Source: Chloropicon primus
Taxonomy: Eukaryota
NCBI GenBank assembly: GCA_023205875.1
Contig: CP060757.1
Coordinates: forward strand, 496,001-560,000
Length of the DNA: 64,000 nt
Direction of reading: 5' to 3'
The position numbers were made by a program, and so were the translations under genes. Below the pieces are notes generated by a model, which saw only the letters and a list, made by a program, of their open reading frames with translations, was not told where the DNA came from and ran no database searches. Numbering within the stretch: position 1 is the first letter of the stretch; each line of letters begins with the position of its first letter. Below are positions 2,966-64,000 of the stretch, piece after piece.

Positions 2966-5163
2966 TCACTTGTGGTGGTGCTTGTTCCAGTGGATGTTCA
3001 TGCTTCCTATCGGCGGCAGCACCGCGCTCTGACCTTGGTGGCTGTTGCTCGAAGCGTAGCTGCTCCCGTGGCCGTGGTGGTGGCTACCCTCGTGCTGCTG
3101 CATGTTGTGGTAAGCGTGCGACTTCTTCGCGTGAATCTTGTTCAGGGCCCGCTGCTGGACCCCGTAAACCAAGGAGGCGCGGTTCCGAGAGCTGTATTGG
3201 CTGCTGCTATTGGACTCGTAACTGTTGCTGTGGCCGTGGTGGTGCTGCTGGCTCGGTGGGATGTGGGACAAGGACTTGCCGTACGTCTGAGTGAGGTGCT
3301 CGTGGCTGCTCTTGAGGTACGACATGTAAGGCTTGGACGAGTGGTGCTTGTGCTTCCCGTACGGACTCCTTTTCGCGCCCTCCGAGTTCCTGTAGTTCCT
3401 GTAGGAGGACATCGTCATGTGACCCTCCTGGATCCACTTGTGCTGCATGGCTTCCTCGGGGGTGAAGCGCTTCTCGATGTCCCACTTCAGGCAGCCCTCC
3501 AGGAACGAGATGAAGAGCTGGTCCGTGCACCTCAGGGCGTCGGAGAGGGTCTTGTTCCCCGGCCTTCGCCTCTTGTTGCGAGAGTTCACCACAAGCTTGG
3601 GGTGGTCATCCTCGTCGAAAAAGAGCTTCTTCCTCGTGGCGAGGTCCAGCATGCGCTTTGGCGGCAGGCCGAGGATCTCCATGATGCAAGCCAGCTGCTC
3701 GCTCTCGTTCTCCCCCGCGAACAGGGGGTACCCCGTGTACAGCTCGGCCAAGATGCACCCGAAGCTCCATATGTCAATCGAGACGTCGTAAGGCAAGCCC
3801 AAGATCACTTCAGGCGCCCTGTAGAACCTGGACTGGATGTAGGTGTACACGCGCTCATCCTCGAAGCAGGAGGACCCGAAGTCGATCACTTTTATTGCTG
3901 ACTTGCTGGGCTGCTTCAGCAGGATGTTCTCCGGCTTCAGATCACAGTGAATCACGCGCTCCTTTTTCAGGAACTTCAAGGCCACCAAGATCTGGGAAGC
4001 AAACCTTCGAATCAGGCTCAGGCTCAAGCCCTGAAAGTTATTGCTTCGGATGAACTCGTACAAGTTGATCGAAAGAAGCTCGAACGAGATGCACAGGTGG
4101 TTCCTGAAGTAAAAGTACTCGAAGGTGTGCACAATGTTCACCTCGTCGTTCACGTCCTTGTGCCGGAGGTGCTCTAAAATCTTCACCTCAATCAAGGCCT
4201 GGTGATGGAAGCGCTTCTTGTTTCGAATCACCTTGACAGCCTTCACGGTATTCGTCTTGTGGTCCAAGCACTTCATGACTTGCCCGAAGGAGCCCTTGCC
4301 CAGCAGCCCCTGGACCTCGTACCTGTACCCCACGTGGTCCCGCACGATCACCTGATAGTCTCCGTTCTCGTCATCAAAACCGTGATTGTTCTTGCCGGTT
4401 ATTGGGGACCCTTTGATCTTCTTCACGTTCTCCCCCAAGTAGTAGATCTTCGGGTACTCGAGCACCTCGCTCTGCTCGAAGTCAGTAAGCTTGTCCGAGT
4501 GGTGCTTCAGTGCCCCGTACGGAGTGATTGGGAACTGCACGGCTTGCTGGATCTTGGTTGCTTCCTTGTTGAAGCGGTGCTTGAGTCCTGGCTCGTACGA
4601 TTGGCGCAAGGTCGTCCGGGAAGTCGATGTCTGCCGAGCGTCGCTGTACTTCTGACCGTAACGATGGCTCCTGCGTCACAACAGCAAAGGGAGAGAGAGA
4701 CAGAGACAGAGAGAAATCAGAGATGAGTCAGCGAGGAGAAGGATAGGAATAGAATATTTGAAGTCTTTCGAGGCACGGGGTCTCCGGAGGGCACCTCGGA
4801 TCGACGTCGACTCTGCGGCTCGGTCCCCGGTGATGCCACGGCGTGTAGCACTTACCTTGCAGGGAAGATCTCGTCGGTGGAGTCCTCGCTCGTTAGCGTC
4901 CCCGGGCTATCGTACTTGTCCTGGTACTTCTTGTGGTTCCCTTTCCTCTTCTCCGGTTTCTCGTAGTGCGGCGCGAGGCCGTTGTTCTTTCGCGTGAATT
5001 CCTGCTGACTCGGCGGCAACCTGCTGGACGAGTTGTCCCTGCTGTCCCAGCCCTCGCCACTCTTCTCTGGAACCAACTTTGCCTTGGCATTAGCCAGAAA
5101 AGGAAGTCCCTTGGATAGCTTCCCACCGTGGGAAGACACTCCGTGCAGGGACCCAAGCTCCAT
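2966..5163 (-). CDS. Class II DYRK dual-specificity kinase (DYRK2/4-like), 2 exons (intron 4671-4855)
   Basis: DH box NNHGFDDENGDY, GKGSFGQV, HCDLKPEN, DFGSSC, YTYIQSRFYRAPE. The GTAAG...CAG intron joins exon 4856-5163 in frame. Confidence 0.92.
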
Positions 5164-12255: not shown

Positions 12256-13247
12256 ATGGCGACCACGTCGAGCAACCTCATCGCGAGGAAGAAGAGCACC
12301 GACGCCAAGGGGTTTCAAAACTCGTCGTCGTCGAGGGTGTTGGGCCGGAGGAGGAGCGTCGGGAGCGGGGTGGCCGATGCATCGAGGAAGAGGATCGGGA
12401 GGACGGTCTCGCGGAACAGGTCTTCGACGGGGAAGGACCTCGCGAGGGCCGCGGCGGTTGCGGACTTGGGCGCCCTGGAGAGGGAGGTGTTCTCCTTCGA
12501 GCGCCTCGGCTTGCGGGACGAGCAAGCCGCGCCCGCCCCCCCAAACGAGTTGCCGATCATAAGCATAGGGGATTCCGTCGTTTGCCTTGCGCGCGACGAG
12601 CGCCTCATCGGGGAAATGAAGCGGCAAAAGACCCTGAAACGGATTCAGCTGGCCGAGGCGTTCTCCAAGGACCACTACAAGTACTCCCTCTTTGCGGGCG
12701 AGGATCCCGTCGACGAGGGGGTCCCGCAGCACCTCGAGCTGACGCCGACCGATCACGTCCAGATCGCGAGGGCGAGCATCCAGCAGAGCAAGCTGGGCAT
12801 CGTCGGGGACTCCGCCTTGAGCGACGGGAGCGTTGGCGCCTTCTCCGAGGGGGGGCCGAACGAATCGGGCTCAAAGCTCGACAAGGTGAGTGAGCACTCG
12901 CCGCGATAGATCATCGGGGTGTCGTTTCCCCTTGTGACTGACCCACTCCTCGTCTCTTGCCTCGTCCGCCTTCCTCTCTGCCTCACTCTCTCTCTTTCTG
13001 TCTCCCTCCGCAGCAAAAGTCCAGGCGTTACGATTCGGAGGACAGCACGATCCTGGTGTACGGCGACAGGTCTCCGATCGTGATCCCCAAGCTCGACTTC
13101 AGCGTCCTGCCAAACTTCAGAAAGCCTCGCATGTACAACCAGAAGGTCGCCAAGGGGCACCTAAAGAAGTACCACGGCGGTGGCAAGAACAAGGCCGGGG
13201 GCAACAAGGGCGTCATCGGCTTCCTTAACCTTAAGTTTTGGCATTGA
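12256..13247 (+). CDS. Hypothetical basic protein, 2 exons (intron 12886-13013)
   Basis: The GTGAGT...CTGAC...CCGCAG intron joins ORFs 12256.. and 12957.. in frame; host codon bias. Confidence 0.65.
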
Positions 13248-27616: not shown

Positions 27617-28997
27617 CTTTCATCATGCTTTTTTTTTCTCGTCTTCTTCATCTTCTCCTCGAGCAACCGATGTCTCTCTCTGTCTCTCTCCCAATCATAT
27701 ATTTCATATCTTTTTTATATATAGAAACAATACATATATAACACGCCCCCCTCTCTCTCTCCTTGTTTAGATGAGGTCGCCCCCCGCGCTGATAAAGCCT
27801 CTGGAGCCCTAATTGTGGACAGCAGTCAGTCGTTGCTGCGAGAGTCACCTCCTTGGCATCACGGCCTTCGTCGACAAAGGCGAACAACCACACACACAGA
27901 GAGAGTCAGAGTCAGAGTCAGAGACAGAGACAGAGAGACAGAGAGACAGACAGAGAGAGATTACCTTGGCAAGGAGAAGGATACGATCCAAGACTCGCGA
28001 ACGTAACGCGAGGTGGTCGAGGTTGTGGACCAGAGTTTTCCTTTTCTCTCTCTCTCTCTCTCTTACGAATGCGAATGAGAGAACGGAATGAGGCAAGCGA
28101 GTAGCGCTGGGAAAGGTCGGGAGGTCGGGAGGCAACGCTTATCGTCGTGTTGTGTTGCTCGCTTCCCTCGTCCTCAACCTCCCTTGCGCGCCGCTGTTTC
28201 GGTTTCCGATCAAAGCAAACCGCCGGCAAACGCGATCGATCGATCGATCTGATCTGATCGTGCAGAGAGGGAGGTGGGTGGTGAAAATATGGACAGAGCA
28301 CAACTCTGCAGGGGATGCGACGGATGAATGGAGAAGGGGACGAGGGAAAGAGGGAAAGAGGGGAAGAGGGGAAGGACTTGATTGCTCTCTCCATTGCTTT
28401 CGATGGATCAAGAAATGAATGGATCAGCCGCTTGCTTGCTTTGGAACGTACGGATTTGGAATTTCGATCTCGCTTCCTTCCTCGCTCCTCCTCCCAGGAT
28501 AATGAACGTCTCTCATAGAATATTTTATCGCGCGGAGCAAGAAGAGCCGTCTGACGACACCTCTCACAACCCCTTCCAGGTCCGCGAGGGCGGGAGACGA
28601 GGTCTCCGTTCCCGCAGGAGAGATCCCGGAGAAGGCCTTGCATTTAGCGCTGGCTGCTCTTGTGAGGAGGCCGCGAGGGACTTCAGCTCATGCGAGGGTG
28701 TTTGGGTTCATCCTCCGGCTTGAGAAAATTTGTCTATTCTAGAGAATACAGAATAGGGGAAACAACTATAGAACAAATCCTGTTCGAGTATAGTCGTGCT
28801 TGTGGATTCCGCCGCGACGGTTCTTGTAGGCCACGTCAACTTGCAACGCGAATTGCTGGCGGAGCCCGAGAGCCGAGCGCGGGCAGAGCCGAGGCCCACG
28901 ACGACGAGGACGACGAGGACGACGAGGACGACGAGGGCGATCCGAGGTTGCTCGTGTCTCGGTTTAGGTTTTAGGTCTATACCGCACCGCACCGATT

Positions 28998-62243: not shown

Positions 62244-63326
62244 TCAATCCGAGTTCGCCTCGACGGACTCCTTCTTCTTCTCCTTCTTCCCAAAGCCCTT
62301 GGCGGCAGCGGCGCTCTGCACCAGGGGCGTGTCCTCCAGGATCCCCTTGACGTAGACCTTCCCCTTCTCGACGAACCCGGTCTCCTTGGCGAACCTCTCG
62401 ATCTCCTCCTTGTCGCACTGCAGGATGACGTCGGTCCACTTGTCGTCGTCGCTCGTCACCATCTTGACCTTGGCCTCCTCGGTCCTCGTCCCGTTGCTCA
62501 TGTAGTACGCGTAGGACCCCGGGGTGAGGAGCAGCATGGTGTACCACCAGCTGCCCACGCTGGGGTAGATCGTGGAGAGCACGAGGGCGATGGAGGCGAG
62601 GCCGAGGAACACGTAGAACGCCAGCGCAATCCCCTGGCCCCGGTTGGCCTCGTACACGCCCTGGAAGGTGATGACCTCGCCCGTCTCCGCGATCTTGTAG
62701 TTGTACTTGGTGAAGTAGGTCGCCACGACGCTCGCGACCTCGTCCAGCCCCCCCCCCTGCGCGGGGCCGGGGACCTGGAACGTCATGCTCTTCACGGAGG
62801 CCTTGGGCGCCCGCTTGACGAGGGACCACAGCCCCGGGGCCGTCAGGACGACGAGGCCGAGGGAGGCCCAGTACGAGCCCGCGTCTCCCGCGAACGTCCC
62901 CAAGTCCGGGGAGGAAGGCAGGGAGGAAGGCAGGGAGGAAGGCAGGGCGTCGGCGAGGGCCGGGTCGCTCAGCGCGGTGGCGACAGCGTCCGCCGAGGAG
63001 GAAGGCAGGGCGTCGGCGAGGGCCGGGTCGCTCAGCGCGGTGGCGACAGCGTCCGCCGAGGAGGAAGGCAGGGCGTCGGCGAGGGCCGGGTCGCTCAGCG
63101 CGGTGGCGACAGCGTCCGCCGAGGACGAAGGCAGGGCGTCCGCAGACGCCGCCTCCTCCACGAGGGCGAGCAGGAGGAGCTCCTGCACGCCGAGCGCCGA
63201 GGAGCGGCTCCTCAGCCTCCGCGGGGCTCTGAGGCGCAGCCTCGACTGCGCGAGCCTCGGCCCGCCGATTCGCGTGACCGCCGCGTCCTTCCTCGCCAGT
63301 GGCGCAGAGCCAGCACCACCAGCCAT
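62244..63326 (-). CDS. CCB1: Cofactor assembly of complex C subunit B CCB1 (cytochrome b6f heme ci biogenesis)
   Basis: SYWASLGL....PGLWSLVKRAPK, GEVITF.GVY...RGQ, GLAS.ALVL, R.EE.KVKM, EKGKVYVKGILE; transit peptide. Confidence 0.9.
   Translation of the reverse strand: MAGGAGSAPLARKDAAVTRIGGPRLAQSRLRLRAPRRLRSRSSALGVQELLLLALVEEAASADALPSSSADAVATALSDPALADALPSSSADAVATALSDPALADALPSSSADAVATALSDPALADALPSSLPSSLPSSPDLGTFAGDAGSYWASLGLVVLTAPGLWSLVKRAPKASVKSMTFQVPGPAQGGGLDEVASVVATYFTKYNYKIAETGEVITFQGVYEANRGQGIALAFYVFLGLASIALVLSTIYPSVGSWWYTMLLLTPGSYAYYMSNGTRTEEAKVKMVTSDDDKWTDVILQCDKEEIERFAKETGFVEKGKVYVKGILEDTPLVQSAAAAKGFGKKEKKKESVEANSD
62911..63140. repeat. Coding minisatellite: three 63-bp units plus 12-bp units within the CCB1 N-terminus
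   Basis: Encodes (ADALPSSSADAVATALSDPAL)x3 followed by LPSS x3. Confidence 0.95.
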
Positions 63327-63662
63327 CGTGTGAGCGATTACCTTGCCAGTTCCTCCTGTCTTCTTGTCTTGTTGTTTTGTGGGACGCGGATTGTGGGAGT
63401 GCAGATGCTGCTGCTGCTGCTACGCGGCGCGGCGCGGCTCCTCTGTGCGTGCGGGTGTCCAAAATCCCAGACGCCTTCGCTCGCGCTCCGGTGGATGCGG
63501 GGTTCGTCGCCCTCCTCCTCGTCCCGCTTGTGGCTCACAGGAGCCCCCCCTCGGCTTGTGGATAGGGCACGGCGACGACGACGGGGGGGTCCATCTCTAT
63601 ATATTCAAGAAATTGTCGTTCATCATGTTTGTTTAAGTGTAACTTTGGTGGTACACTAAAAA

Positions 63663-63852
63663 ACCGCGTTAGCTCAGGTACGTCTCAGGAAGAAAAACCT
63701 CGCCACCCGACGTTGAATCTCCCACTGACATGCGAATTTCGTCCGATCTATGTAGTTTGGTAGAGCGCCAGACTTTTACTCTTAGTACGGGGATCTACTC
63801 TCGAAAAAGTCCAGTTATCTGGTGGTCGTGGGTTCGAGCCCCACATGCGGTG
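63663..63852 (+). tRNA. tRNA-Lys(UUU) with two introns: D-loop 63678-63755 (GT-AG) and canonical 37/38 63779-63816
   Basis: Spliced: ACCGCGT TA GCTC AG|TTTGGTA GAGC G CCAGA CTTTTA|A TCTGG TGGTC GTGGG TTCGAGC CCCAC ATGCGGT G. All four stems pair (one G-U in the acceptor stem). Confidence 0.9.
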
Positions 63853-64000
63853 TCACCGCGGCGAAACAACAGTCGCCTCTCCTCTTGCTCCGTGAGACAA
63901 AGGTTCGGTGAGAGACGTTAGTTAGACGGTCGAGAGAGAAAGAGCCGCCGGCCGTAACGCCAAAGCCGCGGCCGACGAGTACGGCGACGAGAAGACCACG

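Follow-up and report, generated by a model that had tools for sequence, protein, structure and literature searches.

In the green alga Chloropicon primus, a gene for tRNA-Lys(UUU) is interrupted twice, once at the canonical 37/38 position and once in the D-loop, by a 78-nt segment that carries the donor, branch and acceptor signals of an mRNA-type intron. The explanation that we consider most probable is that this tRNA would be matured by two separate machines, the spliceosome for the D-loop intron (intron 1) and the tRNA endonuclease for the anticodon-loop intron (intron 2), a reading drawn from sequence, the assembled contigs compared here containing no spliced copy. It builds on the anatomy of the gene, the cloverleaf restored when its exons are joined, the splice signals of intron 1, the lack of a strict bulge-helix-bulge (BHB) motif at its junctions and an uninterrupted paralogue in the same genome. 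All positions refer to the window, that is, the whole 64,000-nt stretch of contig CP060757.1 that was analysed (positions 496,001 to 560,000 of the forward strand), which has a G+C content of 57.6%; the available part of the supplement to PMC6731263 gives 57.5% for C. primus.

Anatomy of the gene

The gene spans 63663..63852 on the + strand and is built from three exons. Exon 1 (63663..63677) supplies the 5′ strands of the acceptor stem and D-stem together with A14 and G15, exon 2 (63756..63778) the remaining D-arm, the 5′ strand of the anticodon stem, the TTT anticodon and A37, and exon 3 (63817..63852) the 3′ strand of the anticodon stem, the variable loop, the T-arm with its B box, the 3′ strand of the acceptor stem and G73. 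Joined, they give a 74-nt tRNA-Lys(UUU) with anticodon TTT, a G73 discriminator, a 9-nt D-loop (AGTTTGGTA) and stems paired at 7/7, 4/4, 5/5 and 5/5 positions, so that the fully paired three-exon cloverleaf described in the initial annotation, which was made from the sequence alone, is exact to the coordinate. All stems being intact, the cloverleaf bears no sign of decay. When both strands of the window were scanned, a single 15-mer was found to complete the acceptor stem and D-arm, and this is exon 1.

Intron 1 (63678..63755, + strand, 78 nt) lies in the D-loop between G15 and U16 and carries signals of spliceosomal type. Intron 2 (63779..63816, + strand, 38 nt) occupies the canonical 37/38 position, which is supported both by ARAGORN and by a homologous intron in a tRNA-Lys(CUU) paralogue; it starts one base 3′ of the anticodon, and its third-last base (G63814) is able to pair with C32, the two properties for which it had originally been called a canonical tRNA intron.

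The expectation that standard scanners would miss such a gene was borne out. ARAGORN called no tRNA on the window or on the unspliced stretch, and only after deletion of 63678-63755 did it return a tRNA-Lys(ttt), whose 38-nt intron it placed one base past the anticodon, the restored D-loop having the same length as that of the paralogue. With relaxed settings it produced 20 long-intron matches, including a ‘Pyl’ over 63663-63852, which were taken as noise except in so far as they confirmed the ends. Rfam did not detect the locus at the gathering threshold, and at an E-value threshold gave only a partial tRNA from 63753 (23.2 bits; gathering 29).

In viral contigs (IMG/VR, many of them GVMAG; L001-L059), a 20-nt part of exon 2 is matched 60 times at 59 loci, with a contiguous D-arm in 60 of 60 cases, from which it follows that the normal state of this tRNA is uninterrupted. 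These viral tRNA-Lys(UUU) genes reach an alignment score of 68/74 against the spliced tRNA; several have canonical 37/38 introns and none a split D-arm.

Splice signals of the first intron

Introns of the major spliceosome have a donor consensus of the GTRNGT type. Intron 1 fits it, with the 5′ splice-site motif GTACGT (63678..63683, + strand) following an exon that ends in CAG. A branch-site motif, CACTGAC (63723..63729, + strand), places a CTRAC within 15-45 nt of the 3′ end, with the predicted branch A at 63728, the 28th base from the intron end, and the 3′ splice site TAG (63753..63755, + strand) is a YAG formed by the first AG downstream of the branch motif. The donor, branch and acceptor attributed to this segment at the outset are therefore all where they were said to be; the pyrimidine tract is weak.

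Among the 127,844 78-mers of the window, just one combines GTRHGT, CTRAC and YAG, and it is intron 1 (product of the single frequencies, 7.8e-7); with the looser donor GTR there are three (product, 1.6e-5). These criteria were chosen after the insert had been seen, though the margin is large. A plausible D-arm is restored by eleven cut pairs. Three of them, which take out a single 78-nt segment in different registers, leave the AG-TT-Y-GGTA loop found in the paralogue, so the GT..AG ends are those of one of three equivalent 78-nt registers. Allowing for the 11 cut pairs, the chance of the three signals is about 1e-5, and we regard them as a real feature, far beyond chance.

The mRNA introns of the window provide a yardstick. 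Thirteen candidates were collected. With any of five of them removed, an open reading frame (ORF) gains over 200 aa; one of these five runs antisense to a kinase gene and is probably spurious. The five strong introns use the donors GTGAGT, GTAAGT and GTGCGT and measure 96-185 nt, a range below which intron 1 falls with its 78 nt; none has the donor GTACGT, and the sole candidate that does gains 21 aa. Most of the 13 were selected with a CTRAC filter, so branch statistics on them would be circular. Three examples had been offered initially as sharing the grammar of intron 1. The one at 41527-41421 is strongly supported by the ORF test (117 to 662 aa), and those at 1596-1730 (106 to 169 aa) and 12886-13013 (217 to 287 aa, with its CTRAC 73 nt from the end) proved weak. 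Intron 1 thus shares its type of grammar with the mRNA introns, its exact donor and short length being unconfirmed in the mRNA genes of the window.

An uninterrupted paralogue and the reading of AAA

Public sequencing data bear on whether the gene is real and whether it is needed. Eight of 18 listed runs were compared, all as assembled contigs, the kind of run being mostly guessed. Run X1 (from organism A, DNA by guess) contains a 786-nt contig, with a depth of 120.8, that matches 63560-63886 with no differences, and because of this identity the locus is no assembly artefact. A second X1 contig (depth 135.6) aligns with 63778-63854 apart from a 13-nt insertion and two other letters, and at its 5′ end it holds an intact D-arm, TAGCTCAG, followed by TTCGGTAGAGC, the anticodon stem CAAGA and the loop CTCTTA. 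We read it, from these elements, as a tRNA-Lys(CUU) paralogue with an uninterrupted D-loop of the same 9-nt length, and since its D-loop site is empty, the insert in the UUU gene is fixed at 78 nt between G15 and U16. The paralogue has a canonical intron homologous to intron 2, 13 nt longer and starting GTACG, and the difference between the two genes in the anticodon stem is compensatory. Intron 2 itself opens with an extra CTCTTA hexamer resembling the anticodon loop of the paralogue, and the UUU gene may derive from the CUU gene by a 6-nt tandem duplication.

The summed X1 depth is constant at 120.8 over 63560-63775, with no other contig on exon 1, intron 1 or exon 2. The initial annotation had asked whether an uninterrupted Lys(UUU) copy exists, and no near-identical second gene appears in X1 among the matches listed (11 of 23, from filtered contig matches that may miss diverged copies). 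Some 22 nt of a third tRNA match the T-arm. This third X1 gene, which has the T-arm in common and apparently contains an intron, has a loose end before 63824, and its anticodon lies outside the visible part.

AAA accounts for 95 of 748 lysine codons and is used by 17 of the 19 ORFs counted, which comprise CCB1 and 18 that have a Pfam match. A CUU anticodon is unable to read AAA. The product of the interrupted gene is probably the main or only AAA reader of the cell. According to the available parts of PMC6731263, tRNAscan-SE yielded the 46 annotated tRNA genes of C. primus, and the paper's supplements, as far as available, include genes for Pol III, TFIIIB, two TFIIIC-like proteins, the tRNA endonuclease and RtcB; a list of the tRNA genes was absent from the searched supplements of the Chloropicon genome papers PMC12301720 and PMC6731263.

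Contigs across the introns and searches for relatives

The contigs of the eight runs contain no spliced joint of either intron. The insert is spanned by contigs from X1, X4 and X5, and both introns are kept in all three. The X4 contig (63643-63871, depth 7.2) is DNA by guess and the X5 contig (63658-63885, depth 13.2) RNA by guess, from organism B and identical over 228 nt; they start 20 and 5 nt upstream of the tRNA, respectively, and leave the promoter gap uncovered, unlike X1. These start points are a weak hint of unprocessed precursor RNA, and X4 and X5 may represent DNA or precursor. Runs X14 and X18 have nothing on 63560-63900, and X3, X9 and X10 nothing on the tRNA body, which is no proof of absence. 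Because the canonical intron 2 is retained as well, the unspliced contigs do not single out intron 1, and they lend no support to its splicing. If splicing were fast and co-transcriptional, a precursor that bears the trailer and is free of intron 1 might be expected.

Scans of metagenomes, viral contigs and GTDB genomes yielded no orthologue from another species. The viral contigs contain neither a two-junction interrupted D-arm of 54-86 nt nor a relative of the neighbouring CCB1 gene, and the GTDB genomes likewise no CCB1 relative. The blank in the metagenomes says little, the pattern used there missing introns with T at -4 and having missed the present locus; its one match for a Lys(UUU) exon 2 behind a non-T-YAG (L060) was false, being a variant, uninterrupted, AT-rich copy.

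Putative promoter, 3′ element and neighbouring genes

Upstream, the gene is separated by a short divergent gap from CCB1 (PF12046; 62244..63326, - strand), the closest relatives of which are 78-82% identical, one cluster including a Chloropicon roscoffensis protein (72% by tblastn over a longer stretch). An N-terminal tandem repeat in CCB1 (~62900-63150) differs between contigs of different runs. The gap holds a TATA-like TATATAT (63598..63604, + strand) that could serve either gene. TATA-dependent transcription of algal tRNA genes, and upstream promoters for those with D-arm introns, are described in the accessible sections of PMC3978253.

Downstream, the stretch from the end of the tRNA to 64000 lacks any run of four or more T. 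Instead, a dispersed 3′ element of about 70 nt (63854..63924, + strand) starts just behind the tRNA, and this element (TCTTGCTCCG...TGAGAGACGTT) recurs at 28505-28542 (- strand), directly behind a U3 snoRNA gene (28544-28797, - strand; Rfam RF01848, 55.2 bits, gathering 55) that has an enlarged 3′ domain and, in the Rfam alignment, no GT-AG intron. A pattern drawn from both copies matches the window twice, against no match in 100 shuffles, and the copies align locally with a score of 53, where none of 2000 shuffles exceeds 31. The element also lies behind the Lys(CUU) paralogue in X1 and behind a tRNA-like 3′ end in X4, and several contigs of runs X5, X9 and X10 carry it; X1 contains many contigs with it, at a summed depth of ~3000-3300 against 121, a figure that is not a copy number. 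In the stretch seen, oligo(T) is absent directly behind the paralogue and U3 too. The element folds no better than shuffles (z -0.13), has no Rfam match and was not found in the viral contigs (0 matches) or the GTDB genomes (0 matches). Our guess is that it is a terminator or a 3′-processing signal. Its sharing among these genes raises, and does not show, the possibility that their transcripts are made or ended in a non-standard way, which could bring them to the spliceosome. The trailer opens with ACCGC, which is able to pair with GCGGT in the 3′ strand of the acceptor stem (63847-63859, + strand), a possible competing hairpin in the precursor.

A more far-reaching proposal would combine these points: the sole AAA reader depends on the spliceosome, and tRNA genes, ending like U3 in the 70-nt element and not in oligo(T), give long precursors, possibly Pol II products, to which the spliceosome has access. 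We consider this doubtful as a whole.

Alternative explanations

The strongest competitor to splicing by two machines is a gene that has lost all or nearly all function, a redundant Lys(UUU) copy in which a recent intron-like insertion stays unspliced, AAA being read by a more diverged gene. The three unspliced spanning contigs are what this would predict, and yet the start points of two of them, just upstream of the tRNA, hint weakly at precursor RNA. A broken A box and a missing oligo(T) terminator would likewise suit a silent gene, but the paralogue and U3 also lack oligo(T) directly behind them. The CTCTTA at the start of intron 2 would be in keeping with a young derivative of the Lys(CUU) gene, one whose stems are nevertheless all intact and whose anticodon stem differs from that of its presumed parent by a compensatory change. 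As for the other reader, the third tRNA contig, with its anticodon out of view, is a candidate, and X1 contigs offer no second near-identical copy. Taken together, we judge a dead gene to be unlikely.

A different possibility is that intron 1 belongs to the non-canonical introns of the Cyanidioschyzon or archaeal type, cut by the endonuclease at a relaxed bulge-helix structure, and that GT, CTGAC and AG are there by chance or as a remnant. Algae do have D-loop introns that the endonuclease excises, as the accessible sections of PMC3978253 describe. The initial annotation had reported that no BHB could be built at the junctions of intron 1, and this was upheld, the central helix reaching at most 2 of 4 pairs in all 11 of 11 excisions; since the canonical intron 2 also scores 2/4, the test is coarse and shows only the lack of a strict BHB. 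Folding gave nothing above shuffles either (insert z -0.03, junction region z 0.77). An origin of the insert as a decayed copy of the tRNA's own body or flanks was rejected, 1278 of 2000 shuffles scoring as well for the tRNA body. What does recall a tRNA intron is the start of the insert, which shares GTACG and an 8-mer with the canonical intron of the paralogue. Two 8-mers common to intron 1 and the introns of two other tRNA contigs each also occur elsewhere in the window at chance level, and the likeness is no more than a weak hint of a tRNA-intron origin. Set against the low chance probability of the three splice signals, these resemblances leave removal by the endonuclease quite improbable.

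Least credible, to the point of being hardly tenable, is a permuted or split gene, its tRNA made of 63756-63852 with some other 5′ piece, or a tRNA with a shortened D-arm: permuted tRNA genes are reported from prasinophytes (PMC3978253, accessible sections) and the sub-threshold Rfam match begins at 63753, but the sole 15-mer to complete the tRNA is exon 1, upstream and in order (in a window that holds 148 nt downstream), and a short D-arm from 63746 would pair only 3/7 (63746-63752) with the acceptor 3′ strand and leave a 4-nt D-loop.

A proposed maturation pathway with two machines

Maturation by the spliceosome and the tRNA endonuclease, as the initial annotation proposed, is strengthened by the uninterrupted paralogue, by the failure to find a near-identical second Lys(UUU) gene and by the lack of a BHB; on the other side, the eight runs contain no spliced junction or lariat. 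The pathway may be pictured as follows. The precursor would be transcribed from an upstream promoter of the TATA type, which we infer because the insert splits the A box, and would run into the shared 3′ element. The major spliceosome would then remove intron 1, using the donor at 63678, the branch A at 63728 and the acceptor at 63755, and join GCTCAG to TTTGGT, which would restore the D-arm and let the tRNA body fold. Recognition of an intron by the tRNA endonuclease relies on the mature body and the C32-G pair. As the D-arm and body would fold only once intron 1 has left, the cut at 37/38 most likely comes second, the endonuclease then removing intron 2 with the help of the mature body and the C32-G pair, and end trimming and CCA addition would complete the tRNA. 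Intron 1 most likely entered this gene at a CAG proto-splice site after the split from the Lys(CUU) paralogue.

Relation to known systems

U6 is a Pol III transcript, and so normally are tRNAs; the intron of the S. pombe U6 gene is reportedly the subject of work by Tani and Ohshima (1989/1991) and by Canzler (2016). In the available portion of PMC5855946, spliceosomal introns are listed for fungal U6, U1, U2, U5 and rRNA genes, tRNA not being named there, and S. pombe U6 is a case in which the spliceosome acts on the intron of a Pol III transcript. Intron 1 resembles these in placing a canonical donor, branch and acceptor within the gene of a structured non-coding RNA, one that in the case of U6 is, like a normal tRNA, transcribed by Pol III. 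It differs in that its host is a green-alga tRNA, which does not contact the spliceosome's active site, and in that this gene carries a second intron of endonuclease type; moreover, splicing of S. pombe U6 has been shown, whereas here there are the signals alone. Fungal U3 snoRNA genes also have spliceosomal introns (PMC5832005, in the portion available, which does not name tRNA), and the likeness extends to normal signals in a small stable RNA and to an intron present or absent among paralogues; the class of host is different, and the Rfam alignment of the U3 in the window contains no intron of this kind.

Among tRNA introns, intron 2 is like the canonical eukaryotic ones in position and C32-G pair, whereas intron 1 sits at the wrong position for the ruler mechanism of the endonuclease. 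The disrupted tRNA genes of algae and archaea are BHB-based according to the accessible sections of PMC3978253. The present gene shares with the BHB introns and permuted genes of Cyanidioschyzon merolae, prasinophytes and archaea a D-loop interruption that splits the A box, a TATA-like motif upstream, two introns per gene and the evasion of standard scanners, but its junction has GT, CTGAC and AG in place of a BHB, and it lacks the downstream T-stretch of C. merolae tRNA genes. In the parts available of PMC13149111 and PMC12530127, tRNA splicing is treated as independent of the spliceosome and of GT-AG motifs. The covered parts of the Chloropicon genome papers (PMC12301720, PMC6731263) mention no such tRNA intron, and the literature within our coverage, which excludes most subscription journals and bioRxiv supplements, held no description of a tRNA gene with a spliceosomal intron. 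Sequence and the empty paralogue strongly suggest that intron 1 behaves as the mRNA-type introns in fungal U6 and U3 genes do, but in a green-alga tRNA, an arrangement that we have not found in print.

If true, the dependence of a tRNA on both machines would go against the rule that tRNA splicing avoids the spliceosome, and tRNA inventories made with standard scanners would be missing real genes. It would also offer a small, cultivable test case for the action of the spliceosome on a tRNA precursor and for the gain of introns in non-coding RNA genes, with the uninterrupted Lys(CUU) paralogue of the same genome as a built-in control. Should the sole reader of AAA depend on the spliceosome, translation in this alga would be coupled to mRNA splicing through a single tRNA intron.
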